DNA from: Planctomycetota bacterium | GTDB taxonomy: Bacteria; Planctomycetota; UBA8108; JACQVS01 | Direction: 5' to 3' | Length of the DNA stretch: 64,000 nucleotides | Assembly: GCA_028280485.1 (NCBI GenBank) | Contig: JANQLS010000048.1 | Location: 5,577 to 69,576, forward strand | In this document: in pieces, positions 3,937-59,095 of the stretch | How the letters are laid out: every line of letters starts with the position of its first letter | Position numbering within the stretch: the first letter of the stretch is position 1 | Made by a program: the position numbers and the translations under genes | Notes under the pieces: model-generated | Told to the model about the DNA's origin: nothing | What the model saw: only the letters and a program-made list of their open reading frames with translations | The model's database searches: none

Positions 3937-4044
3937 CCAAAATCGGGCGATATCCAACGCAAGACTTGAAATTTGGGATTTGTGTTAGTATAAGATTACT
4001 AAGAGGTTACAGTTTTTAGCGAAGCAAATATATTTCTCTGGGGG

Positions 4045-4082: not shown

Positions 4083-4095
4083 GTTATTATTAATA

Positions 4096-4127
4096 GACTC
4101 ACGACGGAAGTTGTGAGTCTTTTTTTG
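4096..4127 (+). terminator. rho-independent terminator immediately after the tRNA fragment
   Basis: 10-bp stem gactcacgac / gttgtgagtc (one G-U pair) with a GGAA (GNRA) tetraloop, followed by 7 T. Confidence 0.65.
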
Positions 4128-4200
4128 TGAGTATGGCTGGTGCTGAGTTTCGCACTTGCGAAACACCCGTCGTTCGAAGGCGCGGCTGTAACCCTTAAAT

Positions 4201-4227
4201 AAAACGTATCAATTGATACGGTGATTA
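4201..4227. repeat. 7-2-7 palindrome CGTATCA-at-TGATACG (copy 2, inverted relative to copy 1)
   Basis: With its flanks (aaaaCGTATCAatTGATACGgtga) this is the reverse complement of 3911..3936 with a 1-nt insertion. The two copies bracket the tRNA fragment and terminator. Confidence 0.6.
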
Positions 4228-4379
4228 AAAAAAGGGAGTTGCCGCGCTGTTCGTTCGCACCTTTTTCCTTCCTTTGCGAACCTCTTCGCGATTTCCTCCC
4301 TTGAGACAAATTGGCTTTCTCGAGCAATTGGAGTGCTTTTAAAAACCTGATCCATCTGTTATGAAGGTAATTACACCAA

Positions 4380-4682
4380 TTGGTAAGGAGACCTTCAATG
4401 CCCAGAAGAAGAAAACGTCATTCCCCTGAACAAATCATTAAAAAGCTTCGAGATGCCGATGCCATGCTGCAAGCAGGCAAAGATATCGCCGCAGTTCTGC
4501 AAGCCTTAGAAGTCAGTGAATCCACCTACATTCGTTGGAAAAATCAGTACGGCGGAATGAAAGCAGAAGAAGCCAAGCGTCTCAAAGAGCTTGAAGACGA
4601 AAATAAGCGCCTCAAGCAGTTGGTCGCCGACCAAGCCTTGGATATCCAAATGCTTAAGCACATCTCTGAGGGAAACTGGTAA
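4380..4682 (+). CDS. IS3-family transposase OrfA (HTH plus leucine-zipper part)
   Basis: MPRRRKRHSPEQIIKKL...STYIRWKNQYGGM...EAKRLKELEDENKRLKQLVADQALDIQMLK is the canonical IS3/IS407-group OrfA. Confidence 0.85.
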   Translation: MVRRPSMPRRRKRHSPEQIIKKLRDADAMLQAGKDIAAVLQALEVSESTYIRWKNQYGGMKAEEAKRLKELEDENKRLKQLVADQALDIQMLKHISEGNW

Positions 4683-4744
4683 ACCCTTCTTGAAAGCGTG
4701 CCGCCGTCAAAGAGCTACAAGGTAGATTCGAAATTTCTGAGTGA

Positions 4745-5578
4745 CGAGCCTGCAAGGTTGTCGATCAGCCAAGAAGCAGCCAGCGCTACAAAACGAAACC
4801 AAGGCTCGATGAAAAGCCCTTGGTTGACCGGATGCTGCATTTAGCTCGTCTTCGCCCACCCTTTGGTTACCGAAGGGTAGCCAAGCTTCTTCAGGCTGAA
4901 GCTTGGAACGCAAGCGAAACTCGAATCTACCGACTCTGGCGCCAAGAAGGGCTAAAAGTACCGCAGAAAAGACGTAAACGCAGGCGATTAGGCAACAGCC
5001 AAAACGCTTGCGATAAGCTTCAGGCAACGCGGCCCAACGATGTTTGGTGTTGGGATTTTGTTTTCGATCGGACTCATTCAGGAAGCCAATTAAAGTGGCT
5101 GACGATTGTCGATGAATTCACCCGAGAATGCTTAACATTAAAGGTTGATCGAAGCATTGATAGTGAAAGTATTATCGACACTCTTATCGACCTCATCGCA
5201 AAGAGAGGAGCACCCAATAAAATTCGAAGCGACAATGGCCCTGAATTAACCTCTAAGAGAATCAGGCGATGGTTGAAGGGGATTGATATCAACACCCTTT
5301 ATATCGAACCTGGTTGCCCTTGGGAGAATGGGTACGCCGAAAGTTTCCATAGATGCTTTCGAGATGAATTCTTAGCCATGGAAGAGTTCGAAAATTGAAC
5401 CGCCGCGAAAAAACTTACAACTCAATAGAGGGACGATTACAACTACCACAGACCTCACAGCTTACTGGATTACCTGACTCCAGTGGAATTCGCAACTCGT
5501 TGTACTGCTTCCGTTACGGCTTCGGCTACGCCTCAGCCTTCACTCCAGCAGTACAACGGTGACCCCAAGTTAAACTGA
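4745..5578 (+). pseudogene. IS3-family transposase OrfB (DDE integrase core) with a disrupted C-terminus
   Basis: The open frame from 4745 holds a DDE core (DVWCWDFVFDRTHSGSQLKWLTIVDEFTRECL...IRSDNGPELTS...). After EEFEN the frame shifts, and the conserved tail RDDYNYHRPHSLLDYLTPVEF is preceded by an in-frame TAG where W is expected (KLTTQ*RDDYN). There is no overlap with orfA. Confidence 0.7.
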
Positions 5579-6033
5579 ACTTTCATAAGGGGTGGTACAG
5601 GAAATTAAAGCCATCCAGTGCGATTGGCGTTGGTTTTAATTCGTCGAATCCAAGAGGAAATTGAGTTTTAGTACGGATTAAAGTGACTTCTTAGAACGCC
5701 AATAGTGAGGCACCTACCCGTGAATTTTAGTTCCGAATCGAGTTCGGGAAGTCTTTATAGACGAAATTTAAAAAAATCTGAGTCTCAATTTATTCTGGTC
5801 CCCGGGTTAACCTGATCTAAATAACCCCAAAAGTGACCCCAATTAATCAGAGCCCTGTTAGTTTGAGCAGAAATGTAGTTACTTTCCGTTAAATTAACAG
5901 GAAGGCCAGTAGGACGAGTTGCAACTCAATACAGTGCTTGGATTTATGGGTTTGAGGTCTTCCGGCTTGGAAGGTATGATCTGGGAGCTTGAGTTTCTAA
6001 TTTCAATCTTAAAGCCAAAAGGGAGGAACCATG

Positions 6034-17739: not shown

Positions 17740-17973
17740 GAATAGCGTTCTAAGACCATATTTAAGTTTGGAGCTTTATACTAACCTATTTTTCGGTTCT
17801 GAAGAACTTAATGTTATTTAAAGTTTTGTAGGGTGCATTTAAAATTTGCGATATCATTATCGTTTTGAATCCTTGTACCAATTTTAATGAAATAAAGTCA
17901 AAGATGGGCTCATGAAGGGGAAGGAAAAATCGTTGTTATGGATGCTCTTTGTGAGCAATGACATGAGACTGAT

Positions 17974-18705
17974 ATGATGAACCAATTAAAAATGAGCGTT
18001 AAGATTCTCTTATGCCTGGTGATCTATCATCAGTCTACCACCGCTCAGCCTTGTGATTGTCCCATCCCCATTGAGCTTGAACACGCTTTGATGTCTGCGG
18101 ATTCTTTTATTTTGGGGGAAATTCAAAGTTCAACAATCGAAGAAAAGAAGAATATTGTTACAGTCGAAGTTGAGGCTATTTGGAAAGGTCCAATCCTGAA
18201 TGAACTAGAAGTGAGCTATTTACTTACAGATTGTCGTTTGGATTTTAAAATCGGAGAGAAATACATTATTGATTCCAGGTTGATTGACGGGAGCTATCAG
18301 ACATTTAATTGTACTTACACCGAAAAGTTTTCAGAAGGTCTACTCGACCGTTACCCGCCACCCTGTGTGAGTGGAGAAGAGATCCTTACTACAAATAAAG
18401 TGGATTGTGAATTTCCTTATCGATTTATAAGGGGAGATATAAATGAGGATGGGCTTGCCGATATTTCTGATGTCATTATTTCTTTAGAATATATGTTTAT
18501 CGCAAATGAAAATATCCTTAATTGCATGGATGCCGTAGATTTTGATGATAGCGGCTCAATTGATCTAACGGATCCAATATACTTGCTTGAACACTTTTTC
18601 TTTGGATCTCAAGCTCTTCCACAACCCTTTCCCAATTGTGGAGTGGAAGACAGTCATGATTTTCTGTCACCTTGCCTTGATCATAGTGCGGTTTGTAGGG
18701 ATTGA
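17974..18705 (+). CDS. secreted protein with C-terminal dockerin-like double EF-hand module
   Basis: Signal peptide and a Cys-rich N-terminal domain. C-terminal RGDINEDGLADISDVIISLEYMF and DFDDSGSIDLTDPIYLLEHFFFG...PQPFPNCG make the same module as 2599..3243. Confidence 0.55.
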   Translation: MMNQLKMSVKILLCLVIYHQSTTAQPCDCPIPIELEHALMSADSFILGEIQSSTIEEKKNIVTVEVEAIWKGPILNELEVSYLLTDCRLDFKIGEKYIIDSRLIDGSYQTFNCTYTEKFSEGLLDRYPPPCVSGEEILTTNKVDCEFPYRFIRGDINEDGLADISDVIISLEYMFIANENILNCMDAVDFDDSGSIDLTDPIYLLEHFFFGSQALPQPFPNCGVEDSHDFLSPCLDHSAVCRD

Positions 18706-18733: not shown

Positions 18734-19075
18734 ATGTTCTTCAGTAAATGGAGTATGTCTGTTATCGGGAAAATATTGAAAACGACTTCAATTTTAGTGA
18801 CCCTGATGTGTCTACAGGGATGCTCGACCTTGTTTTCATTATATGATTCGATAGATCCAATCCATCCTGCTACCTATGGTGGGACTCGCCGAAACATAAA
18901 TTTGTGGGGGAGGAAAAATCGATATATTGCCACTTGGATAAGTAATACAACGACAGTAATCGATTTCCCGTTCTCATTAGCTTTGGATACTTTAGTTTTA
19001 CCGATTACTGTTCCTGTCGATCTGTATCATGGTGAAGAGTACTATGAGCAGTTTAAGGATGTGTATTATTATTAA
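18734..19075 (+). CDS. DUF1375 (YceK-like) lipoprotein
   Basis: Lipobox LQGC, then YGGTRRNINLWG...VIDFPFSLALDTLVLPITVPVDLYHG, matching the YceK signature (YPGV..., LDLPFSLvfDTLLLPIDIHHG). Confidence 0.6.
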   Translation: MFFSKWSMSVIGKILKTTSILVTLMCLQGCSTLFSLYDSIDPIHPATYGGTRRNINLWGRKNRYIATWISNTTTVIDFPFSLALDTLVLPITVPVDLYHGEEYYEQFKDVYYY

Positions 19076-23783: not shown

Positions 23784-24479
23784 TTGAAATTTGGCATTGG
23801 AGCCGGTGTCATGAAAAAGTCTATTTTGATTCTATTTCTTACCGTGATGCCGCTGAGTTCTGGCTGTATGACATTAGAATCCCAAAGTTCATATCATAAA
23901 AATCCTGCTAAAACTCTTAGGTACTACAACGGAAATATGATGTACGCTGGGACGCGGCTTGATCTTGAATGGCTAACTTCAATATTTTGGTACTTCATTA
24001 TTCCCTTGGCGGACCTACCATTTAGCTTAGCGGCGGATACTCTGATTTTGCCACTTACTATTTATCAGACGGCTACGGCTTCAGATTACTTAAATGAGAG
24101 TGAAGATGAAGGGGAGTGGTCAAACGCTTTAACCGTTGCCGAAAAACTCCAAAACCTCCGCAATGGTATGGAGAATTACATGCTATTAGGAAATGCTGAT
24201 TATTCACAAGAGCATATTAACAAGTGTGAAAAAATTCTATATGAGTTCGTGCTTTCAGTGCAGCAAGCGGGAAGGGAAGGAACATCTCGGGATGCTTTTA
24301 TAATGGTTAATGTGAAGTCCGCCGTTTTAAAATTAAATGTTTTAAACAAAGAATGTAATGGGGGCTTAATAGAAACAGATCAAAGAGAACAGATCTGTGA
24401 TCTCATAACCTATGCTGCATTGAATGCCGGATTGGTGACTGACTTAGAAGATATTACCTGGGAGTGGCGAGAGTGGTAA
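23784..24479 (+). CDS. DUF1375 (YceK-like) lipoprotein with C-terminal extension
   Basis: Lipobox LSSGC. YYNGNMMYAGTRLDLEWL...IIPLADLPFSLAADTLILPLTIYQ matches the YceK signature. An extra ~120-aa C-terminal region follows. Confidence 0.5.
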   Translation: MKFGIGAGVMKKSILILFLTVMPLSSGCMTLESQSSYHKNPAKTLRYYNGNMMYAGTRLDLEWLTSIFWYFIIPLADLPFSLAADTLILPLTIYQTATASDYLNESEDEGEWSNALTVAEKLQNLRNGMENYMLLGNADYSQEHINKCEKILYEFVLSVQQAGREGTSRDAFIMVNVKSAVLKLNVLNKECNGGLIETDQREQICDLITYAALNAGLVTDLEDITWEWREW

Positions 24480-31165: not shown

Positions 31166-31960
31166 GTGTTCGTGGGTAAAAAAATAATGATTCTCTGTGG
31201 TGTTGTATGCGTGATCCTTGTTGCCACTTCAGTTCCATCGATCATTCAGCACTACCGGATTAAAGAATTTGTTAAAGATCTAAAATCTGAAGATATAGAA
31301 ATCCAAAGGAAAGCTATAAATGCTCTGGCTGGGTATGGAGCTGAAGTGGTTCCGAGACTAATACTGGAAATCGAACAGTTACCTGCTCTTGAAAATCGCG
31401 AACCGTGGAATTTCATTCTATTGAGCAATTTTAAGAGCAATAGAATATTTGAATACAATTTGATTAGAACTTTTTTGAAAATTGGAGAATCCTCGATACC
31501 CTTATTGATCAGTCGACTTTCAAATAAAGATCTTCGATTTGAATCCTTCGTCATCTGTGTGATCGTATTTTTCTATTCTGATTCAGCTCAATTGTTAGAA
31601 GAAATTGAGAAGCCTTGGGTAAGAAAAACTGTAAGTGATGGTGTTGGATCTACCGGTGAAATACCTAGATCATCTTTTTGTACTACCATCGAAATTTATA
31701 AATCAAAAATGAAAATATATAGAGAGGGGATAATAACCGATCGAGGTCGACGCTATGAACTAAGACTGATACCAAGTATTGTTCATCTTCTGAAAAACTT
31801 ATCAAAGCAAAAATCAGATCCAGGACTCCAATCCTACTGCCGGAGAATTATATTGGGGAACATCAGTAGGACCGAAAGGAGTGTACCATCAGAAAGTGTT
31901 TTGATAGAGATTGAAAATGTATTGCCAAATCTCAAAGTTAAGCCATTGAGAGCATTTTAA
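31166..31960 (+). CDS. membrane-anchored HEAT-like repeat protein (paralog family H, copy 1)
   Basis: N-terminal TM, then RIKEFVKDLKSEDIEIQRKAINALAGYGAEVVPRLILEIEQLP (PBS-lyase/HEAT-like unit). Aligns along its whole length with 39264..40031 and 56982..57764. Confidence 0.5.
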   Translation: MFVGKKIMILCGVVCVILVATSVPSIIQHYRIKEFVKDLKSEDIEIQRKAINALAGYGAEVVPRLILEIEQLPALENREPWNFILLSNFKSNRIFEYNLIRTFLKIGESSIPLLISRLSNKDLRFESFVICVIVFFYSDSAQLLEEIEKPWVRKTVSDGVGSTGEIPRSSFCTTIEIYKSKMKIYREGIITDRGRRYELRLIPSIVHLLKNLSKQKSDPGLQSYCRRIILGNISRTERSVPSESVLIEIENVLPNLKVKPLRAF

Positions 31961-36007: not shown

Positions 36008-36673
36008 CTATATGAGTTCCTCTCCCCAAACAAATATTCCTGCAAGGGCACCGAGCTGAAAATTGGCTAAACTTTTAGTTGGGAAATATTTCTTTGAGTC
36101 CCTAGCAGTATTGAACAATACACAAATGGATATAGCTTTCTGTGAATCAGTGCCACTTTCCAAGTATGTATCCAAAAGCTTCCGAGTTTTTTCTGGGAAA
36201 TGCTCAAATAATGATCGAAGAACATGAATGTAGAGCTTGGGCTTAAATCGATTTGCGTTTTTCTTGATTTCTTGAAGATCAGGTCCAAATCCATGCTTCA
36301 AATTATAATATTTAGCTGATTCTAAACTGAACACCCAGGGAACATAAATATCTAAACGGGATTCATATTTAGGTTCATTCCTCCTAAAAAGGATTTTTTC
36401 TCCAATATACCAATCACGGTTTTCTTCCTCCAGTTTAGTTGAAAGAATATCTATGATCATTGGGATCGCTTCAGTGATACCTAAGTTTTCGATATTTTTG
36501 AGGTAGGGGGCGCAATCTTCAGATTCACAAACTTTAAGATTCCAGATGAGGTATTTTTTGTGAATGGATTCCCATGAAATAAAAACAGAGATACCTATAG
36601 TTAGGATTAGATTCGCAATTATTATTTTAAAGAACAGCTTGTTCTTAAAATTCAAAATGGCACCTTTTTCCAT
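36008..36673 (-). CDS. membrane-anchored protein of the 'WIWKLR-C-x3-DCE' HEAT-like subfamily (family W)
   Basis: N-terminal TM, then HKKYLIWNLKVCESEDCAP. Paralogs at 41565, 53014 and 55598. Divergent from the FGE-domain gene 36872. Confidence 0.5.
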   Translation of the reverse strand: MEKGAILNFKNKLFFKIIIANLILTIGISVFISWESIHKKYLIWNLKVCESEDCAPYLKNIENLGITEAIPMIIDILSTKLEEENRDWYIGEKILFRRNEPKYESRLDIYVPWVFSLESAKYYNLKHGFGPDLQEIKKNANRFKPKLYIHVLRSLFEHFPEKTRKLLDTYLESGTDSQKAISICVLFNTARDSKKYFPTKSLANFQLGALAGIFVWGEELI

Positions 36674-36871
36674 TCCAGATGAACTTAAAGCAATTTTAGG
36701 AAGTGCAGATTAATATGGAATCCATCGAAAACTTTATAGTTTTGAGCTCTTTTAAGAATTGTAATGAAATAAAGTCACTAATTGGTCATGGAGGAAAAGA
36801 TTTTTGATTTTGTAAAAATTGTTTTCAGTAGTTGGCGCTCATTATGTTAGGCCTTCATATTTGTTAAACTC

Positions 36872-37837
36872 ATGAATCCACCCAAAAAACGATTCATCCT
36901 ATTTACATTAATCATATTTATTAATCTACTCAGTGTGGTCTGTCTCAACTGGGATGGACTCCTGCGCGAGTATCGCTTCTGGCAGGACTTTGATTTTATT
37001 GAAGTGAATGAACAGGGTTACAAAGAATATATGCACCTTAAGAGTGGGGTCGTAATGGTTCTACTGCCCGGTGGGGAGTTCTTGATGGGGTCGCCCGAGG
37101 ATGAGGTCGATAGAAGAGAAGACGAGTTTCTTCATAGGGTTAGGGTTTCGCCTTTTCTAATTGCGAAATATGAAGTTTCTCAGTCGGTATGGGAGAAGGT
37201 TATAGGGACCCACTCCTCTGTTCGTTTAGGGAGTTCTCTCCCAGTGGAAGTGTCTTGGGATGATTGCTATGGAAGCAACAATTCATTTTGTAAACAGCTT
37301 GGCTTGCATTTACCAACCGAAGCACAATGGGAATACTCTTGCAGAGCTGGTTCCTCAACCAAGTTTTCTTTTGGTGAAAAGCTTAATGTCAAAGATGTGA
37401 ATTTTTCATTACCAATAATTCTATTAGACAGTTCCGATGGTAAAGTAGATCAGACTGAATCCAAAATGGATTACAACGATCGGGGTCACCTAGTTGATGT
37501 GACTTCCTTAAAAGCGAATTCCTTTGGTTTGCACAATGTTCATGGCAATGTATTAGAGTGGTGTGAAGATGTTTATAACGAAAAATATTATTTAAATGAA
37601 AATGCTAAAAATGGTGATCTTGCATCCCTGTCTGGATCAATTTATAGAGTTTTACGTGGGGGGAGATACAACCAAACCGAAAGATTTTGTCGTTCGGCAA
37701 TGCGTTTTTTTCAACGGGGAGATTCGGAGATGTCTCCCGGGCCAGAGTACTTTGGGCAATCAACTGGAGGAGTTAGTTTTGGACAATTTCATGGCCATGG
37801 CTTTCGGCCCGTCTATAACCTCACCCTCTCACGGTAA
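36872..37837 (+). CDS. TM-anchored FGE-sulfatase (formylglycine-generating-enzyme / C-type-lectin-like) domain protein (family F)
   Basis: N-terminal TM, then the family-specific LNWDGLLREYRFWQDF and FGE-domain motifs LLPGGEFLMGSPEDE, LPTEAQWEYSCRAGSSTKFSFG, HGNVLEWCEDVY, RVLRGGRY, GFRPV. Lacks the paired catalytic Cys of true FGE. Confidence 0.75.
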   Translation: MNPPKKRFILFTLIIFINLLSVVCLNWDGLLREYRFWQDFDFIEVNEQGYKEYMHLKSGVVMVLLPGGEFLMGSPEDEVDRREDEFLHRVRVSPFLIAKYEVSQSVWEKVIGTHSSVRLGSSLPVEVSWDDCYGSNNSFCKQLGLHLPTEAQWEYSCRAGSSTKFSFGEKLNVKDVNFSLPIILLDSSDGKVDQTESKMDYNDRGHLVDVTSLKANSFGLHNVHGNVLEWCEDVYNEKYYLNENAKNGDLASLSGSIYRVLRGGRYNQTERFCRSAMRFFQRGDSEMSPGPEYFGQSTGGVSFGQFHGHGFRPVYNLTLSR

Positions 37838-39263: not shown

Positions 39264-40031
39264 ATGGGGAAAAAAGCAGTAGTTATCACTGGAGGGGTTT
39301 GTATTCTTCTGTTTTCTTTTTTAGTACCTTCCCTTGTTAAATACTATAGAATTGAGGCTCTAGTTCAGCAGCTTCATAGCACAGATCAAGAAACTCAAAG
39401 TGAAGCTATAGATCGTCTCGCCGAATATGGTCCTGAGGTGATTTCAAGATTAATTGAAGAAATTGAACAATTGCCCAAGCTTGGTGAAAAAGATGCTTGG
39501 TGGTTAAGCGTTTCAGACAGAAGCAAGACGAATAGATTGATTGACTTAAATTTGATTAAAACATTCCTTAAAATCGGAGAGTCATCTATTCCTCAATTGT
39601 TGAGACGCATTCCTTCCGAAAATTATAGATTGGAAAGTATTGCTCTTTGTGTGGTCGTTTTTCATTATTCAGAAATGGTTGACAAAGTCATGGCTGGAAA
39701 GAAGTCAATCGGAATGTGCCTCGTAGATGATGACGGTAATCCTTTTTATCACACTATGACGATGGTCGATTTTGAACCGCAGTATGTAATAAGAATTACT
39801 CAAGAAAGAGGTTCTTTTACGGGTGAACCCGACTCATCTTCCAAAGTAGTACCAAAGATTTCTTACGTTTTAAAGTGCCTCCATAAAAGTCCTTCTAAGA
39901 AAGAGGGGTTTACTCGATTGCCTGATTTGAATTTGGTGAGTGGTTTGAAATTTACTAACTTGGCTCCAGCAAGGATAGTGTTAAATGAAGTCAAATTGGC
40001 TCTTGAGCGAATTAATTTGAGTAAAAAGTGA
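39264..40031 (+). CDS. membrane-anchored HEAT-like repeat protein (family H, copy 2)
   Basis: YRIEALVQQLHSTDQETQSEAIDRLAEYGPEVISRLIEEIEQLPKL. Aligns with 31166..31960 including LIKTFLKIGESSIP. Confidence 0.5.
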   Translation: MGKKAVVITGGVCILLFSFLVPSLVKYYRIEALVQQLHSTDQETQSEAIDRLAEYGPEVISRLIEEIEQLPKLGEKDAWWLSVSDRSKTNRLIDLNLIKTFLKIGESSIPQLLRRIPSENYRLESIALCVVVFHYSEMVDKVMAGKKSIGMCLVDDDGNPFYHTMTMVDFEPQYVIRITQERGSFTGEPDSSSKVVPKISYVLKCLHKSPSKKEGFTRLPDLNLVSGLKFTNLAPARIVLNEVKLALERINLSKK

Positions 40032-40049: not shown

Positions 40050-40556
40050 TTACTCCGAGCCGCCTTGGTTCCAAACCCTAAGTGGGCTGATCCCAAAATT
40101 TAAATTCCAAAACCAATAAACTTGCTTATACCCTTTTTCTGCTAGTATGGAGTCGATTTCTGATGTTTGTTCGACTTCACTCTGAGGCTTAACTTTACAT
40201 AATCCGATGACTGCTTTGGTTCCGGGAGTTACATCTTGCTCAACGGTTTTTTTGAAATCTTCGAAAGTTTGACCAAAAGCCCAAAATCCGATGTAGTCGG
40301 CGTCTTCATATTGGCCCAATATTTCTATTTCTTGTTCGTACTTTAGAATCCTTTGTAGGCTTACGGGATTGTTATTTTTATCACGATTACCATTGAGTCT
40401 TATTTCTTCCAATTCTTGCATATACCATTTTTGAGTATTCGCTGCTGCCCACTTAAATGTGATTGAGTGTTCAGGTTTGTCTTCTGAGTTTTGGCAACTT
40501 ACCAAAGAGAATAAAACTGAAGCTACAAAGATTGGGCCTGAAGTATTTAGGTTCAT
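40050..40556 (-). CDS. lipoprotein, hypothetical
   Basis: Lipobox LVSC, 168 aa. Confidence 0.45.
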   Translation of the reverse strand: MNLNTSGPIFVASVLFSLVSCQNSEDKPEHSITFKWAAANTQKWYMQELEEIRLNGNRDKNNNPVSLQRILKYEQEIEILGQYEDADYIGFWAFGQTFEDFKKTVEQDVTPGTKAVIGLCKVKPQSEVEQTSEIDSILAEKGYKQVYWFWNLNFGISPLRVWNQGGSE

Positions 40557-40897
40557 TAAGATTGAGATTCCGTTTCTTCATCATCTTCATCAGAAACGGG
40601 AACCATTCTCGGTTTTAGCAGCCACCTGAAAAAATCAACATGTATGAGAAGGCTGTCTAGGGCAATGTCAAAGGATAGCTCAACTAATAAAATGGGTGTT
40701 ATAGCTATGAATAAAATTCTTGAGTTTGGATCTTTATCTTGAAGTATTTCATAAGATCCAACTAAAACATTTGATACTCCTGGGTAAACTGGATACTTTT
40801 TAAAGCCTCTGGATCCCCCGCGACTTAATATCGAAACACAACCAGTAGTTGAAATTAAAACCAAGAGTAGAAAGACTAAGAGAATTTTAACTTTCAA
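40556..40897 (-). CDS. DUF1375 (YceK-like) lipoprotein, divergent copy
   Basis: Lipobox TTGC. YPVYPGVSNVL...ILFIAITPILLVELSFDIALDSLLI matches the YceK pattern. It overlaps the downstream gene by 1 nt. Confidence 0.45.
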   Translation of the reverse strand: MKVKILLVFLLLVLISTTGCVSILSRGGSRGFKKYPVYPGVSNVLVGSYEILQDKDPNSRILFIAITPILLVELSFDIALDSLLIHVDFFRWLLKPRMVPVSDEDDEETESQS

Positions 40898-40944: not shown

Positions 40945-41322
40945 TTGTTCCATAGCCTAACCGAATTAGTAAGAAAAGACCAAAAAGTGAAAATTATAAT
41001 TCTGGTTACGTCAATCCTATTTTTACCAGGTTGTTTAAGCGTTCAAATGACCTACTACACTTATCCTCTTCCGATTCAAAGTTATCGGGGGACTGTTAGT
41101 CACGTCAGTCACTTTCCTTTATATCGAAAGACAGCCCCTGGGTATCGTTTGTACGGGCCCTTCATCATGGTTGTCGTAGGTCAGTCCTTTGTTGACTTAT
41201 GCTTATGTGCGGGTTTGGATACTCTTCTTCTTCCAGCGACCTTGCCTGTAGATATTTATGGCATTTTTTATCCAGATGATTTTGAGTATTATCGTGCCAG
41301 AGCTATGTCAGAGGATTGGTAG
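40945..41322 (+). CDS. DUF1375 (YceK-like) lipoprotein
   Basis: Lipobox LPGC. YRKTAPGYRLYG...CAGLDTLLLPATLPVDIYG. Confidence 0.55.
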   Translation: MFHSLTELVRKDQKVKIIILVTSILFLPGCLSVQMTYYTYPLPIQSYRGTVSHVSHFPLYRKTAPGYRLYGPFIMVVVGQSFVDLCLCAGLDTLLLPATLPVDIYGIFYPDDFEYYRARAMSEDW

Positions 41323-41564: not shown

Positions 41565-42080
41565 ATGAAAAGAAAACTAATCTTAGGAGCTGTGATTGCC
41601 TTTCTCATTAGCGCGTTGTCCTCGGCGTGTTATATTTACCGCTCAAGTATCAAAAAGAAATATTGGTATTATAGATTATTGAATTGTAAATCCTATTCGG
41701 GCTGCGAAGAAGCAAGTGATGGGTATTTCAAGAATTGTTCTGTTGATGATTTTGAAAAAGTAGTATCAAATTTTTTACCTAATCTAAATAAATTTGATTG
41801 GGAGATTGTTCAATTCCAGTGGGGTTTAGGTATTAGTGCAAATGAAATTGATGCCGGGTTTATTGATGATCCTCAAATACGGTGGGGGAAAATTACATAT
41901 GAAAAATATGTCGACAAGTATCGAAGTGAGTTAATTCATAAGGGAAATAAATATATAAAGATGAAAGAGATAAAGAATAAGGCCATTGGTATTTGCATAT
42001 TGTTTAAAAGCATTGAAGAAGCTAAAGGCCATTTGAAAGGGATAAAGCACAGTATCCACAAGGGGGAGATTTTAGAGTAG
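41565..42080 (+). CDS. membrane-anchored family W-like protein
   Basis: N-terminal TM, then KKKYWYYRLLNCKSYSGCEE (variant of the WIWKLR-C-x3-DCE motif). Confidence 0.4.
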   Translation: MKRKLILGAVIAFLISALSSACYIYRSSIKKKYWYYRLLNCKSYSGCEEASDGYFKNCSVDDFEKVVSNFLPNLNKFDWEIVQFQWGLGISANEIDAGFIDDPQIRWGKITYEKYVDKYRSELIHKGNKYIKMKEIKNKAIGICILFKSIEEAKGHLKGIKHSIHKGEILE

Positions 42081-44618: not shown

Positions 44619-45450
44619 ATGAAATCTAAGCTCCGAATACTCATCTTCCTCATCGCAGGTCTTGTAACCTTAGCAACCCTCGGAACTGTAGCTATCTACT
44701 GACAATCCCTAGTCGCCTGGTACGAGTTCCAGCGTGAGTTTGAGAAGTTACCTGTTAGCGTGCAGGGCCTCCCTGAGTACAAGCATCGTCAGACGGGGAT
44801 CATCTTCGATAAGGTTCCTGGTGGGACGTTTATGATGGGGAGTCCGGAGGATGAGGTGGGGCGTAAACCAGATGACGGTCCCCAGCATGAGATCACCCTT
44901 TCATCTTTTCTCATAGGTAAGTATGAAATTTCACAAGAGCAGTGGGAAAGTGTGATGGACTCAAATCCTTCTCTATTTAAAGGTAGAGATCTCCCCGTTG
45001 AGAATATTTGCTGGGACGACATCCAAAAATTTAGGGAGGAGACTCAGTTAGTACTTCCGACTGAAGCTCAATGGGAGTATGCCTGCCGGGCAGGATCGAC
45101 GAGTTCATACACTTTTGGAAAAACAATCTCAAATAAAGATGCGAATTTGAAGAATGAATCCAAGTAGCATTAATACATCCGGGCAGAAATTCGCGGGAAA
45201 AACCATGCCAGTGAATCGATTTAAACCTAATCGCTTTGGGATGCATCAAATGCATGGAAATGTAGCGGAATGGTGTGAAGACTTAACTCAAACCCGTAGT
45301 ATTTTTGGAGGCTTAAGAAACAACCGTATTGTTCGGGGTGGGAGTTTTTATCAAACAACCTCTGAGAATCGCTCTGCTTCAAGAAGTTCTATGCGTCAAG
45401 GGGCTCGATCTCCAATGGTCGGCTTCCGCCCGGTCTGGAATCTGAAGTAG
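44619..45450 (+). pseudogene. family F (TM plus FGE-domain) paralog inactivated by an in-frame TGA and a frameshift
   Basis: ATG at 44619 encodes a TM segment, then TGA at 44700..44702 where paralogs have W (AIY*QSLVAWYEFQ vs LNWDGLLREYRFW). The FGE domain continues in frame (ORF 44760..45167), then shifts frame near 45150 (ANLKNESK* / MNPSSINTSGQK vs paralog ANFFVMNPANGK). ORF 45154..45450 carries the C-terminal half. Confidence 0.65.
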
Positions 45451-49421: not shown

Positions 49422-50651
49422 TCAAAAATCCAGCTCCAAACTCTCATCTGAATCTGCATCCGGATGTTCAATTCGTTCAAGCAGAGAAGGGGTTTCCACT
49501 TCAATAGATTTCTCAAGTAGTAGTAACTTCATATTCGCGTCAAGCTTTCTCCATTTGTTCTTTTCTGGACCGGTCATTTCGCAGAAAGCCGTCCAAAGCT
49601 TATGGTTTTCTTCTGTGGGATTTTCTAGGACAAAGGCTCCCATCGAAGCAGAGAGATGGGCCATTTCCTCAGTAAAGAACTCATTATTGTCAAGAAAAGT
49701 TGAATTGAAGGCTTGGATTTCGTTCCAGGAATACACGTTTTTAAACTGTGAATTTGAGAGATACGATTCCTTTAAATTTAAATTTTTAAAATCACTGTTA
49801 AGAAAATTAACGGTGCTTATTTTAGTGAGATTAAGTTTCGCGTTTGAAAAATCAGATCCGGATAAATCGGTACCTGAAATAAAGGAATTGTTGATTTGGG
49901 CATCTTTAAATGTCGTATTCATGCCCTGCGAGGAACTGATTGAAACGTTGTTGAGGGTTGCCCCTTCGAAATTGGACCAATGAAAAGTGGTATTGCTGAG
50001 AGATAAAACACTTATATTGGCTTTGGTGAAGTTGACGTCGAATAGAATGCTATCTTTAAAATTTAAACTCGAGAAATTCGATTCGCTGAAGTCAGCTTTG
50101 TTTAAAGTTGCGGCTTCAAAATCTGCATTTACTACGATCGCTCCAATGAATTTTGAATTTTTGAGATTTGCTGATTTAAATTGAGCTTTTTTTGTATTCG
50201 AATAGGAGAGATCTGCGTTTTCGAGATTAGCGCCATTGAATTTAGTTTCTATCAGTTTACATTTAACTAACTTACTGTGACTGAGATTGGCATCTTTAAA
50301 ATAGGCAAATTGAAGATTTGCTCCACTGAAATCGGTATGTTCTAAAGTTGCTCCCTCAAATAAAGAATTATTGAGTTTAGAGTATCCAAATGATGAATGG
50401 CTAAGATCGACTCCTTCAAAATTTACATTTTGTAGGTCTAAGTTACTGAGGTCGACATGTTTTAGTTTGATCTTTATATTCGGGTTTTTATTTCTCCATT
50501 CGTTCCATAGGGAGACCCCGCTTTTTAATCTACGGACATTTTGATATTCAACCCACCAGTCTTTAAAATCAGGCCAAAGTGAAACAAGACAAAAAATGGT
50601 CGCCATTCCTGCTAGTGAGAGTGCTATATTTATAGATTTAGACTTTTTCAT
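49422..50651 (-). CDS. membrane-anchored pentapeptide-repeat protein
   Basis: N-terminal TM plus VSLWNEWRNKNPNIKIKL, then >40 A(D/N)LxxA-type pentapeptide units and an acidic C-terminal tail. Confidence 0.75.
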   Translation of the reverse strand: MKKSKSINIALSLAGMATIFCLVSLWPDFKDWWVEYQNVRRLKSGVSLWNEWRNKNPNIKIKLKHVDLSNLDLQNVNFEGVDLSHSSFGYSKLNNSLFEGATLEHTDFSGANLQFAYFKDANLSHSKLVKCKLIETKFNGANLENADLSYSNTKKAQFKSANLKNSKFIGAIVVNADFEAATLNKADFSESNFSSLNFKDSILFDVNFTKANISVLSLSNTTFHWSNFEGATLNNVSISSSQGMNTTFKDAQINNSFISGTDLSGSDFSNAKLNLTKISTVNFLNSDFKNLNLKESYLSNSQFKNVYSWNEIQAFNSTFLDNNEFFTEEMAHLSASMGAFVLENPTEENHKLWTAFCEMTGPEKNKWRKLDANMKLLLLEKSIEVETPSLLERIEHPDADSDESLELDF

Positions 50652-51184: not shown

Positions 51185-52291
51185 TTGATTTTCAATAAAC
51201 AGAGATTCGTTCTTATAATTTTAATCTTTCTACTTCTAACGATGATCTTCTTTGTTTTGAAGCCGACCTTAGATAACTATCTTTTTAATTTAACTGTTGA
51301 GGGGAAATTAAAGGAAGGGCCCAGGGTTTGGAATGAATGGAGGGAAAAGAACAATTTCGAAAATTTGCACCTTAATAATCTGAATCTTGTTGGCTTAAAT
51401 TTACCGTGGAACGAATCGGCTTCGTACAATTTAAAAAATTTAAGCTTTTACAATTCCAGCTTCAATAAATGTAATTTTGAGACAATTAGGTTTAATGGAA
51501 GTACCTTTGAGTCTTGTCGATTTGAGGATTGCGTTTTTAGCAGTGTTAGTTTTAAAGCTTGTAACTTTATTTATTCTGAATTTTTTACATGCGAATTTTC
51601 AGGGAAATTTGAAGATTGTGAATTTAACCAATGTTTATTTCATTCCACAAAATTTGAACGTAAATATTTTATTGGTAGTAAATTTGTTGGAGGGGGATTA
51701 AAAAACTCAAGTCTCTATAACTCTAGAATTAGTGGGAGCTCATTTCTGGCTACTGATTTTAAAGAAGTCGATGTCGACTTTGTTAACTTTGATATTGCTA
51801 AATTTTTTGGAGTAGATTTAACTTCCTTAAAAATTCATCAATCAAAGATTGAAGGAATGTTTTTAGACCGTGACAGTCAATTGCCCGAAAAATGGATTCG
51901 TTTACATCGGCTACTGAATAGTCTGCAAGAAAAAGAAATATCGGATAACGATTTGTTTAACGGGCAAGATTTAGATTTGGCTGGGATTGATTTTTCTCAT
52001 GCTTGGTTGCATGGATATGATTTTTCAAAATCTAATCTTGAAGGATGTGATTTTTCTAATGCATATTTGTGGGAGGTTAACTTGAATCAAACAGAGGTAT
52101 TAGGTTGTGATTTTAGTAATGCGATTTTTAGAGATGTAAATTTTAGGGATACGAAAGGTTGGCAGTCCGCTAAGTATCATAAAATGACTTTTGTGAATTA
52201 TGACGAAGATGAGGTGCCTGTCGAAGTGTTGAATGAGGCTAAAAAGCAAGGCGCGATGATTGTAGAGCGATCTTCAGATGAGGAGCGTTAA
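51185..52291 (+). CDS. membrane-anchored pentapeptide-repeat protein (paralog, divergent orientation)
   Basis: N-terminal TM plus PRVWNEWREKNNFENLHL, then pentapeptide units (CNFETIRFNGSTFESCRFEDCVFSSVSFKACNF...). Confidence 0.7.
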   Translation: MIFNKQRFVLIILIFLLLTMIFFVLKPTLDNYLFNLTVEGKLKEGPRVWNEWREKNNFENLHLNNLNLVGLNLPWNESASYNLKNLSFYNSSFNKCNFETIRFNGSTFESCRFEDCVFSSVSFKACNFIYSEFFTCEFSGKFEDCEFNQCLFHSTKFERKYFIGSKFVGGGLKNSSLYNSRISGSSFLATDFKEVDVDFVNFDIAKFFGVDLTSLKIHQSKIEGMFLDRDSQLPEKWIRLHRLLNSLQEKEISDNDLFNGQDLDLAGIDFSHAWLHGYDFSKSNLEGCDFSNAYLWEVNLNQTEVLGCDFSNAIFRDVNFRDTKGWQSAKYHKMTFVNYDEDEVPVEVLNEAKKQGAMIVERSSDEER

Positions 52292-53013: not shown

Positions 53014-53646
53014 ATGAACAAACCTAAGAAACGAACCATCTGGATTCTCTCGATCGTAACCACCATGCTGTTACTGGCAGCTGTTTTAAGTTTCCAAGGC
53101 AAAATTAGAGAGCGGTACTGGATTTGGAAACTTAGAAAATGTTCTCCCTCGGATTGCGAAAAAATTTGTCAAGAGATTGTCGAACAACGGATCTATTCAT
53201 CGATTCCAGTTCTTTTTGATAAACTCAAGGAAGAAGCTAAATTGGAGGATTCCTGGGGGATTGGTCGACTCTACAGATTGAAGGTTAATCATGGAGAATT
53301 GGGCTCGGGGGTATCTACAATAATTGATGGTTTTAATGATCTCCTCGACGAAGATTTCCAGTGGTCCATTTTCTATTCTTCACCTGATGGTCCTCGAATA
53401 CCCAGAATGGGAATGTATCCTGTTGAAGATGAGCTAAATAAAACATCTGAAATATTTGAAACGATGTATTCATTGTTTAAAGAAGACCCGGAAACCCTCA
53501 AGTCTGTTGTGATTCCTTATCTAAATGATAAATCAGATTTGATTCGAGCTACGGCAGCGTGCCTAGTTTTTAACGATCTGGAAGAGATTAAGAAATACGT
53601 CCCTAATGTAACTTTGGGCCAAATACACTTTCTAAGTCGATTGTAG
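53014..53646 (+). CDS. membrane-anchored family W protein
   Basis: N-terminal TM, then IRERYWIWKLRKCSPSDCEK. Confidence 0.5.
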   Translation: MNKPKKRTIWILSIVTTMLLLAAVLSFQGKIRERYWIWKLRKCSPSDCEKICQEIVEQRIYSSIPVLFDKLKEEAKLEDSWGIGRLYRLKVNHGELGSGVSTIIDGFNDLLDEDFQWSIFYSSPDGPRIPRMGMYPVEDELNKTSEIFETMYSLFKEDPETLKSVVIPYLNDKSDLIRATAACLVFNDLEEIKKYVPNVTLGQIHFLSRL

Positions 53647-55597: not shown

Positions 55598-56122
55598 ATG
55601 AATAAACGTAAGAAGCAGACAATTTGGGTGATCTCGATCCTAATCATCCTGCTGTTAGTGGGAGTTGGCTTCGTGTTCCAAAGCCAGATCAGAGAGCAAT
55701 TCTGGATTTGGAAATTAAGAAGTAGTGACGATCAAGTGCAAGATGAGGCATTGTTGCAATTAGGAAAGCTTCGGTGTTTAAGAGCTGTCCCTGACATGGT
55801 CGAAGTATTATCAAGAAGGATTGAAGGGAAGCCTTTTACTCTCGCAAAGATTAATTCGATATTAACACTTATTTACTTTCAAGACCGTTCCTCAGGATCT
55901 CCTGGGCATAAAATGAATTTTAAATGCTTTAGTAGGTTTGTAGAAATGAAAGACCCGGCTTTACTAAATCAATTTACTGTTATTTTAAAAGAGACATCGG
56001 CGACCAAAAAAGCAGTTGTTTTATGTGTCTTAAATGCGACTAAAAAAGAGGTGAAGCTTCATCTTCCAGAAATCGGATTTATAGAGAATATGCATGAGAC
56101 GGATGATATTTTCTTTAGATAG
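55598..56122 (+). CDS. membrane-anchored family W protein with HEAT-like unit
   Basis: IREQFWIWKLRSSDDQVQDEALLQLGKLRCLRAVPDMVEVL. Confidence 0.45.
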   Translation: MNKRKKQTIWVISILIILLLVGVGFVFQSQIREQFWIWKLRSSDDQVQDEALLQLGKLRCLRAVPDMVEVLSRRIEGKPFTLAKINSILTLIYFQDRSSGSPGHKMNFKCFSRFVEMKDPALLNQFTVILKETSATKKAVVLCVLNATKKEVKLHLPEIGFIENMHETDDIFFR

Positions 56123-56981: not shown

Positions 56982-57764
56982 ATGGGTAAAAAGTACGTAC
57001 TTATCAGTGGCCTTCTCTGTGGAGCCTTGATTTTGTTCAGTGCTCCCAAGCTGGTTGATCATTTAAGAATTGAAGGGTATGTAAAAGATCTTCATTCATT
57101 TGATAAATCAGTCCGGGAAAAAGCCATTCAAGAGTTAGCCGCTTATGGTACTGAAGTTATTCCGAGATTGTTGGCCGAGCTAGAAACATGTCCCTCTGTT
57201 AATGACGAAGAGTGTAAAAAGTTCAATAGAAATCCTGAAAATGGAAAGACGAGAGCTTACGAGATGGGATTCATCCGAACTTTGGTTCTCATCGGTGAAG
57301 AGAGCATTCCCTATCTATTCGAACGGTTAACAGTGAATGACAAAAACCTAGAAAGTGTTGCTTATTGCTCAGTTATGTGGATATACGCCGAAGTTGCCAA
57401 ATTTGAAACTTATGAATACTTCAAAAATGGAGGTGGATTTATTTTTGAATTGACGAACGCAGCTTATCGTGAAGATTCTAACCGTCAGATAATTTTTTAT
57501 ATTAGGTCAGCTGGTTGGGATATCGTTCAAACTACGTATACCTTCGATGAAGGTGAACTTGGTATTAAAGAGGTGAACCTCGATATTAAATATTTGCTAT
57601 CAAGCATCACAAAGTTTAACTCTTTTTTAACTCCACCGGGCTTTATGTCGGATGCACTTAATAGTGAACACCAAAAAATTGAAGTTAAGTCGGGCTTAGT
57701 CATCGAATCGGCTAAAACGGCATTAATGCGATTGGAGGAAGCAGAGGGTGTTGTTGATAAATAA
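56982..57764 (+). CDS. membrane-anchored HEAT-like repeat protein (family H, copy 3)
   Basis: LRIEGYVKDLHSFDKSVREKAIQELAAYGTEVIPRLLAELE. It overlaps the downstream YceK-like gene by 17 nt. Confidence 0.5.
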   Translation: MGKKYVLISGLLCGALILFSAPKLVDHLRIEGYVKDLHSFDKSVREKAIQELAAYGTEVIPRLLAELETCPSVNDEECKKFNRNPENGKTRAYEMGFIRTLVLIGEESIPYLFERLTVNDKNLESVAYCSVMWIYAEVAKFETYEYFKNGGGFIFELTNAAYREDSNRQIIFYIRSAGWDIVQTTYTFDEGELGIKEVNLDIKYLLSSITKFNSFLTPPGFMSDALNSEHQKIEVKSGLVIESAKTALMRLEEAEGVVDK

Positions 57765-58176
57765 TCCTACCTGCAATCTAATACTTGACAGCGATCAATT
57801 TAAGAACTCTGATGAACTAACTCAATGTATTTCGTTAAAGCAAACGCGCCAGAGCATGAAAATCCTATTTAAGTTTTCTCTCTTCATTCTGTTGTTGTCG
57901 AGCTTTGTAAGCTGCGCAACAATACGAAGGATTAAAAATTATCCCGAATCACCTCAAATCTATGGTGGAGTTCGAGAGCACGTTGTGTATTTCCCAACGG
58001 GTCATTTGCCGATGCATAGCCCCGGAGGATCTCCAGAAGCCTTTGGTTTTGCCGTAATGTTTACTGGTTGGTGGATGCCCTTTGATTTTATTCTTTGCGC
58101 TGGTTTGGATACGGTTTTTCTGCCTTTGACGATGACTTCGTTATTTTATGAGGAAGAAGTGGAAGAGAGCTTTTGA
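57748..58176 (+). CDS. DUF1375 (YceK-like) lipoprotein
   Basis: Lipobox FVSC. IYGGVREHVVYFPTG...CAGLDTVFLPLTMTSLFYEEE. Confidence 0.55.
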   Translation: MLLINNPTCNLILDSDQFKNSDELTQCISLKQTRQSMKILFKFSLFILLLSSFVSCATIRRIKNYPESPQIYGGVREHVVYFPTGHLPMHSPGGSPEAFGFAVMFTGWWMPFDFILCAGLDTVFLPLTMTSLFYEEEVEESF

Positions 58177-58195
58177 AAATCTATGAGATGCACTT

Positions 58196-59095
58196 GTGCG
58201 ATCTCAACCTCGCCTATTCAGTACTTTTGTCTTTTCGACATGCTTATTTGTTAAGCCCATGACACTATTCAAAAAACGATTCTTCCAATTGACACTGATC
58301 GCATTTGTAGGTTTGATCTTCATTGCTGGGCTTAATTGGGATGCTTTGGTTATGGAATACAAATTGTGGAGAAATTTCAAAAGCTTAGGATTGAACAATC
58401 AGGGTTATCGAGAATATGAGCATTTAAAGTCTGATATCGTGATGGTTCTACTTCCTGGTGGTGTGTTTAAGATGGGAAGTCCAGTAGATGAAGAGGGGCG
58501 AAATGAAAATGAAGAGCTCCAACGTAAAGTGACACTCCCGGCTTTTTTAATTGGTAAGTACGAAGTTTCACAAGGGCAATGGGAGAGGATTATGGAGATA
58601 AACAACTCTAAAAACAAAAAAGATAAACTCCCTGTAGATTCTGTAACTGGGGATAAGTGCATTGAGTTTTGTGAGAAAACTGAGTTAAGCCTACCAACTG
58701 AAGAGCAATGGGAATATGCCTGTAGAGCTGGAACCTCCACTCCATTTTCATTCGGATCTACAATTACATACGACCAAGCAAATTTTTTTGTTATGAATCC
58801 AGCTAACGGGAAATCAGGTGTTCAGGCGCGGGGAAAAACGATCCCGGTAGGTAGTCTTAAGCCTAATCAATGGGGGATTTTTGACATGCACGGAAATGTG
58901 TGGGAATGGTGTACTACGAAGGAAAAGCAGGGCACAGTGACGTCAGATATCGAGGAGGATAAGCCGAAGAATATTATGCGTGGAGGATCTTTCGCTCATT
59001 CAATATATTATGCCCGATCCGCTCAACGTAAGATCCTGGAGCAGGGTATTGTCAGGGGGACGGTTGGTTTTCGGGTTGTGTGGAATTTCGATTAG
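58196..59095 (+). CDS. TM-anchored FGE-sulfatase/C-type-lectin-like domain protein (family F)
   Basis: LNWDALVMEYKLW, LLPGGVFKMGSPVDE, LPTEEQWEYACRAGTSTPFSFG, HGNVWEWC, IMRGGSF, GFRVVWNF. It lies 20 nt after the YceK-like gene. Confidence 0.75.
   Translation: MRSQPRLFSTFVFSTCLFVKPMTLFKKRFFQLTLIAFVGLIFIAGLNWDALVMEYKLWRNFKSLGLNNQGYREYEHLKSDIVMVLLPGGVFKMGSPVDEEGRNENEELQRKVTLPAFLIGKYEVSQGQWERIMEINNSKNKKDKLPVDSVTGDKCIEFCEKTELSLPTEEQWEYACRAGTSTPFSFGSTITYDQANFFVMNPANGKSGVQARGKTIPVGSLKPNQWGIFDMHGNVWEWCTTKEKQGTVTSDIEEDKPKNIMRGGSFAHSIYYARSAQRKILEQGIVRGTVGFRVVWNFD

Follow-up and report, generated by a model that had tools for sequence, protein, structure and literature searches.

The three genes at positions 56982-59095, which encode a membrane-anchored HEAT-like protein (H family), a YceK-like lipoprotein (Y family) and an anchored protein with the FGE-sulfatase fold (F family), probably belong to a tandem expansion, specific to one lineage, of envelope-tethered proteins that are likely to bind ligands or act as scaffolds, and not to a conserved three-family cassette. 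We assign this reading a probability of about 60%. Within the organism, the recurring association is that of F with H and with W, a family of anchored helical proteins, and not with Y. On this view the locus would lie in an island, peculiar to the lineage, where genes for small envelope proteins have been amplified in tandem; the proteins are predicted to face the periplasm, held either in the cytoplasmic membrane or by a lipid anchor. The island would comprise four families: F (the FGE/C-type-lectin fold lacking the catalytic cysteine pair), the orphan families H and W (a signal anchor and HEAT-like repeats) and Y (YceK-like lipoproteins). What recurs in it would be F in the company of W and H, in closely spaced arrays of one orientation that may have grown by tandem duplication. 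The H1-Y1-F1 order would then be a single local arrangement of paralogues rather than a dedicated three-component operon. The window is the whole stretch of 64,000 nucleotides that was analysed.

Gene models and paralogues

As the preliminary description had stated, three ORFs lie at 56982-59095, all on the plus strand. H1 (56982-57764) encodes a protein that is present in identical form in NCBI and Logan. Y1 (57856-58176), which was not called by the Logan gene caller, encodes a YceK/DUF1375-like lipoprotein of 106 aa with the signal MKILFKFSLFILLLSSFVSC and the C-terminal motif DFILCAGLDTVFLP. F1 (58259-59095) encodes a signal-anchored protein of 278 aa with the FGE-sulfatase (C-type-lectin-like) fold and without a cysteine past the RGGS motif. 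The genes had been described as separated by a 17-nt overlap and a 20-nt gap, but these values turned out to be a product of the GTG starts (57748 and 58196) of the longest ORFs. The starts supported by homology are ATG 57856 for Y1 and ATG 58259 for F1. The family HMM alignments start at residue 37 of the long Y1 and residue 22 of the long F1; the extension of Y1 from GTG 57748 has no homology support, and the signal peptide and lipobox of Y1 begin at ATG 57856. The surroundings of the F1 ATG, including 25 nt upstream, are conserved with the start of its paralogue F2 (DNA repeat D3). Because the homology-supported starts replace those of the longest ORFs, the gaps are 91 nt between H1 and Y1 and 82 nt between Y1 and F1. 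Therefore the three genes are not translationally coupled, as had been supposed. No terminator-like site was found in the H1-Y1-F1 region, and the common direction and short gaps leave room for co-transcription. For each of the three products an envelope location is predicted, in agreement with the original proposal.

Using all-against-all BLASTP and family HMMs, we showed that the families have been duplicated and have diversified, as had been suggested, with more paralogues than had been listed. In H1, a TM helix at the N-terminus precedes about 2-3 HEAT-like repeats of the PBS-lyase type (residues ~38-138), and the protein ends in an alpha/beta domain of unknown fold. Its paralogue H2 (39264-40031, plus strand) is 39% identical to it across the N-terminal 139 aa. 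A third H paralogue in the window, H3 (31172-31960, plus strand), was missing from the earlier list and has no Y, F or W neighbour. The HEAT assignment of H holds moderately. With 13.6 bits (E 0.085), H1 stays below the Pfam HEAT_2 cutoff of 27.7, but the H profile, over its positions 30-70 and 97-128, matches bona fide multi-repeat HEAT_2/HEAT_PBS proteins with E-values from 1e-11 to 1e-4, and the AF2 model of H1 (pLDDT 77) shows helical hairpins, with helices 42-138 above pLDDT 90. A Foldseek comparison of this model with the PDB gave only weak matches to alphaRep and CpcE (E above 0.2), none of them significant.

The orphan W family comprises W1 (36008-36673, minus strand), a signal-anchored helical protein whose AF2 model, of low confidence (pLDDT 60), indicates no more than a helical protein; W2 (41565-42080, plus strand), a divergent member that matches the W HMM at 7e-43, being itself among the sequences that built this HMM; W3 (53014-53646, plus strand); and W4 (55598-56122, plus strand), which lies two genes upstream of H1. 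W4 is an extra paralogue beyond those listed before; it matches HEAT_PBS at E 0.064. The preliminary description gave H and W an N-terminal anchor followed by the same HEAT-like unit. Both features were seen, but the link between the two families is weak (hhalign E 0.003, probability 10%). The repeat signature of PBS-lyase-type HEAT proteins (HEAT_2/HEAT_PBS, CpcE/F and the artificial alphaRep), D-x-x-V-R-x-x-A-x-x-x-L-x-x-x-G-x-x-x-(I/V)-P-x-L, also occurs in H and weakly in W, and their helical hairpins are likewise predicted in H and, weakly, in W. Unlike these proteins, H and W have only 2-3 repeats, which are below the Pfam cutoffs and are joined to an N-terminal membrane anchor, and H is additionally fused to its unrelated C-terminal alpha/beta domain. 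The F, W and H proteins share a design in which a basic N-terminus is followed by a TM helix and this by an aromatic/basic juxtamembrane helix.

There are five Y copies within 40 kb here, whereas E. coli has two YceK/YidQ genes per genome. Y2 (40556-40897, minus strand) is a YidQ/YceK-like lipoprotein recognised by the family HMM and by NCBIfam PRK11616 (YidQ; 1.6e-5, below its cutoff). Y3 (40945-41322, plus strand) is the closest paralogue of Y1. Y4 (18734-19075, plus strand) is a canonical DUF1375 lipoprotein, and Y5 (23784-24479, plus strand) is a DUF1375 lipoprotein with a C-terminal extension of ~120 aa; neither adjoins an H, F or W gene, and both are paralogues additional to the earlier list. 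Y3 is the next plus-strand gene after H2, an order that echoes the H1-Y1 pair.

The YceK/DUF1375-like naming holds moderately. Y4 and Y5 (24.8 and 23.8 bits) exceed the gathering score of Pfam DUF1375 (PF07119; 20.3 bits), but Y3 remains below it (E 0.016, 15.9 bits), and a Pfam search of Y1 and Y2 gave no match. Y1 is linked to the family only via its paralogues: it is tied to Y3 by BLASTP (5e-6) and the family HMM, as well as by DNA repeat D6. The YceK-like motif is not a signal-peptide artefact, a possibility raised at the outset, as the Pfam match of Y4 and Y5 covers the C-terminal motif D-x-PFSL-x-x-DTL-x-LP and not the signal peptide. Lipobox cysteines were located from the sequence and by regular expression in Y1 (FVSC), Y2 (TTGC), Y3 (LPGC), Y4 (LQGC) and Y5 (SSGC). 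YceK and YidQ (DUF1375, PF07119; PRK10175, PRK11616) are short lipoproteins with a lipobox cysteine and the C-terminal D-x-PFSL-x-x-DTLLLP, in common with Y; in Y1, Y2 and Y3 this motif is divergent (LCAGLDT or SFDIALDS). The literature on YceK/DUF1375 gives no function, and the family therefore offers no mechanism for Y.

Gene order in the window and on other contigs

The three families had been described as a recurrent cassette. The complete H-Y-F order occurs once in the window, and a gene-order permutation test within the window showed that the adjacency of H, Y and F does not exceed chance (p about 0.055-0.32). Within a distance of 2 genes, 5 cross-family pairs of H, Y and F were counted where 2.3 were expected (p 0.055), and Y-F adjacency was a single case (p 0.37-0.75). 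Taken inside the window alone, H/W/F adjacency was not significant either (p 0.11-0.66). An N-terminal hydrophobic anchor or signal is carried by 40 of the 68 window genes, and because of this an anchored gene beside a lipoprotein gene is the local default.

We read four H-bearing contigs, all from SRR20820735. Contig L002 carries the series F-W-H-W-H-H-W-x-F fragment and contig L085 the series F-F-F-F-W-H-W, with 4-nt overlaps between F copies; neither has a Y gene. F and W genes are absent from contigs L003 and L084. No Y gene lies on the other H or F contigs; the further 8 H genes seen there all stand without a Y gene nearby. On three separate contigs, F, W and H are interleaved in one orientation. 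F or W genes make up ~10 of the 30 non-H genes on the four H-ascertained contigs, against ~11% in the window. The loci that show this co-clustering were found via H in one organism, may derive from one duplicated block and are not independent observations.

The absence of significance for any family pair in the window permutation would suit the view that there is no functional link at all, and that the region is a dumping ground for duplicates of independently expanded orphan and envelope genes. About 60% of the window genes have no Pfam family, the window holds an IS fragment, and one F copy is a probable pseudogene. We consider this view unlikely, since it leaves unaccounted both the co-oriented interleaving of F, W and H on three contigs and the enrichment of F and W on the H-ascertained contigs. 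A tandem expansion of envelope-tethered proteins is the reading that we prefer.

The FGE-like fold of the F family

The assignment of F as FGE-like is strongly supported. F1 and F2 match Pfam FGE-sulfatase (PF03781) at 4.6e-43 (148.1 bits) and 5.7e-38 (131.5 bits), far above the gathering cutoff of 23.3. F2 (36872-37837, plus strand) is a paralogue of F1 with 44% identity and is divergent from W1. F3 (44760-45450, plus strand), absent from the earlier list, is an additional FGE-like copy that is split by a frameshift and has no N-terminal anchor; its halves match the same Pfam family at 79.7 and 60.8 bits, and it is the probable pseudogene. The F copies are 44-57% identical to one another. Their fold core is well conserved, and the variation is concentrated between the conserved core motifs, including the tail from RGG to GFRPV.

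The preliminary description had stated that the FGE-like members lack the paired catalytic cysteines, and this proved correct in all 8 F copies examined. Past the RGGS motif the C-x4-C catalytic pair is missing from every copy, and each has 0 or 1 cysteine between RGG and the C-terminus. Where present, the lone cysteine sits in a CRSA motif, and presumably aligns with C346 of human FGE. The catalytic, copper-binding cysteines of human FGE are C336 and C341. F shares the domain with genuine FGEs (human SUMF1, Streptomyces and Thermomonospora FGE), with which it aligns along its N-terminal and central parts, but the C336/C341 pair is missing from all 8 copies. No sulfatase genes were found among the scanned ORFs of the window.

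The solved structures closest to F1 are PvdO, human FGE, TvpA and PorK. PvdO is the best of them (9e-18), and the PvdO model (NF051459; named dihydropyoverdine dehydrogenase by NCBI) is also the best NCBIfam match of F (6.7e-28). Together with the conserved fold core, these matches could indicate that F proteins are periplasmic enzymes, performing PvdO-like oxidative maturation or another FGE-fold chemistry independent of the cysteine pair, with H and W as chaperones or substrate adaptors. This is quite unlikely. F scores 97.6 bits against NF051459, where the equivalog cutoff is 500, and neither pyoverdine nor other pathway genes were found among the scanned ORFs of the window. Moreover, many paralogues with variable loops suit binding better than one chemistry. 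With TIGR03525 (GldK-PorK), F scores 87.7 bits against an equivalog cutoff of 350. A search near F found no T9SS or pyoverdine genes.

PvdO (5HHA), Treponema denticola TvpA (2Y3C) and PorK/GldK share the fold family with F, whose own Pfam matches are at 1e-38 to 1e-43. These structural relatives are non-enzymatic or binding proteins, which favours a binding role for F. As in this set, F proteins lack the FGE cysteine pair and are predicted to be located in the periplasm or envelope. The anchor of F is an N-terminal TM helix, whereas proteins of this comparison set have a lipid or a cleaved signal. In TvpA, as in F, the variation is concentrated in loops and the C-terminal region. We also considered F as a DGR variable protein, that is, a TvpA-like CLec target, and rejected it, since the window shows no template/variable repeat pair, with no near-identical DNA repeats that involve the 3' ends of F genes, and since no reverse transcriptase domain was found among the scanned window ORFs. 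In contrast to the TvpA-type DGR, F diversity arises by paralogy and not by retro-mutagenesis.

Under the tandem-expansion reading, the F ectodomains would be non-catalytic binding heads whose loops differ among copies, and H and W may be membrane-tethered helical-repeat adaptors or scaffolds. The cell would thereby gain a varied panel of periplasmic proteins for binding and scaffolding, some of which may interact physically. A more specific version, in which the arrays form a lineage-specific periplasmic recognition repertoire, with tethered C-type-lectin-fold F heads paired with HEAT-like H/W adaptors and diversified by tandem duplication rather than by a DGR as a germline-encoded receptor panel, is speculative and we regard it as a long shot.

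Distribution outside this organism

When 1.84 billion representative proteins were searched exhaustively, ~13 full-length H members were recovered. Each is the sole sequence of its cluster, which comes from NCBI, Logan or ENA (one truncated member), and the family was found only in one sample. Word-indexed protein searches with H1 and the H alignments returned only copies from the same organism, and a 3-sequence H alignment had no match in the genome collection of GTDB species representatives, from which the source genome is therefore absent. W was seen only on the contigs of this sample, which were the scope of its search. Since H was found in one sample only, the three families cannot co-occur across PVC genomes. 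Enrichment of the three families as neighbours outside the genome was checked, and there was none. Around the 80 closest F loci of GTDB species representatives, no Y, H or W ORF lies within 8 kb (0/80). Among Y-like metagenome loci, 1 of 46 has an FGE ORF, which is convergent. Other window genes were not found as common neighbours of F homologues elsewhere.

That H, Y and F constitute a three-part module dedicated to sensing or scaffolding in the envelope, with an operon that is being copied around the genome, is very unlikely: a single strand, gaps of 82-91 nt free of terminator-like sites, three products predicted to be extracytoplasmic, and H2 followed by the closest Y1 paralogue would fit it, but the triad is complete once, Y adjoins F once, H genes on other contigs have no Y nearby (0/8), corrected starts leave no overlap or coupling, and elsewhere the families are paired at none of the F loci and one of the Y loci.

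The chief value of these results is at present negative: the H-YceK-FGE cassette should not be taken as a conserved operon, and its proposal yields no functional clue to the YceK-like genes. If the F-W-H arrays are a functional unit, the bacterium would be diversifying membrane-tethered periplasmic binding proteins by paralogy, using the very C-type-lectin scaffold on which retroelements generate diversity in other systems, and the arrays would provide the first context for two orphan protein families.

Tandem arrays of FGE-like paralogues are also present in PVC genomes and give the expansion a precedent in related phyla. The copies of Ca. Uabimicrobium sp. HlEnr_7 (locus L010) differ from F in having no TM anchor and a different, non-hydrophobic N-terminal segment, and, unlike in the F arrays, no H-like or W-like genes are interspersed among them. 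As with F, they are many head-to-tail FGE-fold genes, here 11 copies in tandem encoding proteins of ~290 aa.

Predicted envelope-tethered families F, W and H

In the window, signal-anchored HEAT-like proteins (H) are encoded at 31172, 39264 and 56982, signal-anchored FGE-sulfatase-fold proteins (F) at 36872, 58259 and 44760-45450 (frameshifted), and the signal-anchored helical family W at 36008, 41565, 53014 and 55598; together with the YceK/DUF1375-like lipoproteins (Y), this is more paralogues than the preliminary description listed. Pfam HEAT_2 matches H at an E-value of only 0.085. A profile of the three window H copies, used in an exhaustive search of 1.84 billion representatives, matched dozens of long proteins via profile positions 30-70 and 97-128, and 8 of the 8 long matches scanned were bona fide HEAT_2 proteins, most of which match HEAT_PBS too. 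The AF2 model of H (pLDDT 77) contains a long anchor helix, then helical hairpins with pLDDT >90 up to residue 138, and a low-confidence alpha/beta C-terminal part. A Foldseek search with this model gave no significant match; alphaRep and CpcE were matched weakly. The HEAT assignment of H is moderately supported. W appears to be an orphan family; its members combine a HEAT-like hairpin with a TM anchor and a juxtamembrane helix of the WIWKL type. It had been proposed that H and W share an anchor and the same HEAT-like unit; both families have each element, and hhalign links them only weakly (E 0.003, probability 10%).

The same search recovered about 13 full-length H members, all of them single-sequence clusters from NCBI, Logan or ENA (one truncated member). 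The four H contigs examined all come from run SRR20820735. Contig L002 carries, on a single strand, the order F-W-H-W-H-H-W-x-F fragment, and L085 carries F-F-F-F-W-H-W. F, W and H lie together at three distinct sites of this organism, an association in which Y has no part; the comparison contigs were ascertained via H and are therefore not independent samples of this clustering. No Y genes were found on L002, L085, L084 or L003. Tandem F paralogues at L085 667-2381 have 4-nt stop/start overlaps, which is real coupling between same-family copies. F, W and H are built alike: the N-terminus is basic, a TM helix follows, and next to it, immediately outside the membrane, comes an aromatic/basic helix. 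Two divergent paralogous pentapeptide-repeat genes in the window, at 49422-50651 (-) and 51185-52291 (+), have the same anchor/juxtamembrane design.

The best reading, to which we give a probability of about 0.6, is that tandem amplification specific to this lineage has produced a set of envelope-tethered proteins here. The positive-inside rule suggests an N-in, C-out topology. In this reading, the F ectodomain would be a non-catalytic C-type-lectin-like module, and the tethered H and W would serve as adaptors made of helical repeats. The proteins add members to already known kinds, in what would be a lineage-specific array. Contigs L084 (two H genes) and L003 (one H) are both without F or W genes. 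A reading in which these families lack any functional link has to be set against the three F-W-H clusters, and we consider it unlikely.

Sequence features of the F family

As had been proposed, the FGE-sulfatase fold is clear by Pfam in F1 (4.6e-43) and F2 (5.7e-38). The solved structures that match F best are those of PvdO, human FGE, the Treponema denticola variable protein TvpA and PorK, and F scores far under the NCBI equivalog cutoffs for PvdO and GldK. Genuine FGEs have two catalytic cysteines past the RGGS motif (C336 and C341 in the human enzyme). All eight F copies collected lack this pair, as the preliminary description stated correctly; they have no Cys or one Cys in a CRSA motif. 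We regard an enzymatic role for F as improbable.

Identity among the F copies is 44-57%; most differences fall in the segments that separate the conserved core motifs, the tail from RGG to GFRPV among them. In our reading of the TvpA literature, this tail corresponds to the retroelement-diversified region of TvpA. In surveys of diversity-generating retroelements, the C-type-lectin fold is presented as a scaffold for ligand binding (PMC5758913, PMC4891356). Such a retroelement was rejected as the source of F diversity: the window shows no template/variable repeat pair, and the ORFs scanned encode no reverse transcriptase. F3 (44760-45450, +) carries a frameshift that breaks it into ORFs 44760-45167 and 45154-45450, which overlap, and it has no N-terminal anchor; it is probably a pseudogene.

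The H1-Y1-F1 locus and the H-Y-F order

Three plus-strand ORFs are present at 56982-59095, as had been claimed. H1 (56982-57764, 260 aa) begins with MGKK and a hydrophobic helix. Read from GTG 57748, the earliest start available to it, the second ORF overlaps H1 by 17 nt, and the third, from GTG 58196, follows 20 nt after the second. These GTG codons are not likely to be the starts. Alignment of the long ORFs to the HMMs of their paralogues opens at residue 37 for Y1 and at residue 22 for F1. ATG 57856 begins the Y1 signal peptide and lipobox (MKILFKFSLFILLLSSFVSC), and the F2 start region is conserved at the DNA level with the first F1 codons and the 25 nt 5' of ATG 58259 (repeat D3). With these starts, Y1 (57856-58176, +, 106 aa) and F1 (58259-59095, +, 278 aa) lie behind gaps of 91 nt (H1-Y1) and 82 nt (Y1-F1), and therefore the translational coupling described earlier falls away. 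No terminator-like or sigma-70-like sites were found on the plus strand between the three genes, so they may be co-transcribed. The Logan assembly gene caller skipped Y1 entirely. In the public gene call, the Y1 region (window 57765-58258, L001 4010-4535) is unannotated, and the F1 start is placed at a TTG, 30 nt 3' of the ATG that homology supports.

Five YceK/DUF1375-like genes lie within 40 kb: Y4 (18734-19075), Y5 (23784-24479), the divergent neighbours Y2 (40556-40897) and Y3 (40945-41322), and Y1 (57856-58176). Y5 is extended at its C-terminus by a further domain of about 120 aa. The family assignment is moderately supported. Y4 and Y5 exceed the Pfam DUF1375 gathering score, the Y3 match is sub-threshold, Y2 matches the NCBIfam YidQ model at 1.6e-5, and Y1, which has no Pfam match, is tied to Y3 by BLASTP (5e-6), a common DNA stretch (D6) and the family HMM. 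The Y4 and Y5 matches cover the C-terminal motif, not the signal peptide. The Y HMM is not merely self-recognising, since 49 YceK-like ORFs were picked up with it on unrelated contigs from metagenomes (E-values down to 1e-14).

It turned out that the complete H-Y-F order, described as a recurrent cassette, occurs once in the window. When the order of the 68 window genes was shuffled, cross-family H/Y/F pairs at most two genes apart (5 observed, 2.3 expected) gave p 0.055, immediate neighbours p 0.32 and Y-F proximity p 0.37-0.75. An N-terminal hydrophobic anchor or signal segment is found in 40 of the 68 genes, so a run of anchored protein, lipoprotein and anchored protein is the local norm. 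Y3, the closest Y1 paralogue, is next after H2 on the plus strand, past two inserted minus-strand genes; thus the H-Y pair may have been duplicated once.

The 80 closest F relatives (identity <=48%) came from a scan in which each GTDB species was represented by a single genome; they lie mostly in Planctomycetota, Verrucomicrobiota and Lentisphaerae MAGs, a taxonomy that hints at a PVC affinity of this organism. Their flanks, ~1 Mb in total, contained no Y-like genes (HMM E <= 1 or motif regex), no H-like genes and one marginal W-like match (E 0.032, within a 1068-aa protein), and no other window genes were shared as neighbours. Among 46 metagenome YceK-like loci (172 kb in total), one has an FGE-like ORF. 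We judged this pairing compatible with chance, because FGE-like genes are common in these phyla. The sole foreign adjacent pair, convergent and slightly overlapping, is at 432-1571 of L091, a 1.6-kb soil metagenome contig (Ga0134127_10289729). Tandem FGE-like arrays are also common in these phyla; the Ca. Uabimicrobium sp. HlEnr_7 chromosome (L010 901-10714) has 11 head-to-tail paralogues of ~297 aa, whose conserved N-terminal segment is non-membrane. H, Y and F are not enriched as neighbours outside this genome, the outcome named beforehand as speaking against the triad, and a dedicated H-Y-F module for envelope sensing or scaffolding, for which the possible co-transcription could be cited, is highly doubtful.

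Other features of the window

About 60% of the window genes have no Pfam family, and the window is rich in ankyrin, HEAT, pentapeptide and dockerin-like modules. The GC content is 45.7% at 4001-6000 and about 38% elsewhere; this higher-GC patch contains an IS3-type integrase fragment (rve, HTH_21) at 4820-5398 (+). An ECF-type sigma factor gene lies at 1051-1611 (-). A 52-nt intergenic repeat (79% identity) occurs at 17849-17900 and 36726-36777, one copy in the divergent W1/F2 promoter region and the other flanked by the genes for a HEAT protein and a dockerin-like protein. The repeat is a possible shared regulatory site. A dockerin-like C-terminal module is common to 2599-3243 and 17974-18705 (42% identity over 84 aa) and has further matches among the ORFs of L047, a locus from a Planctomycetota MAG.
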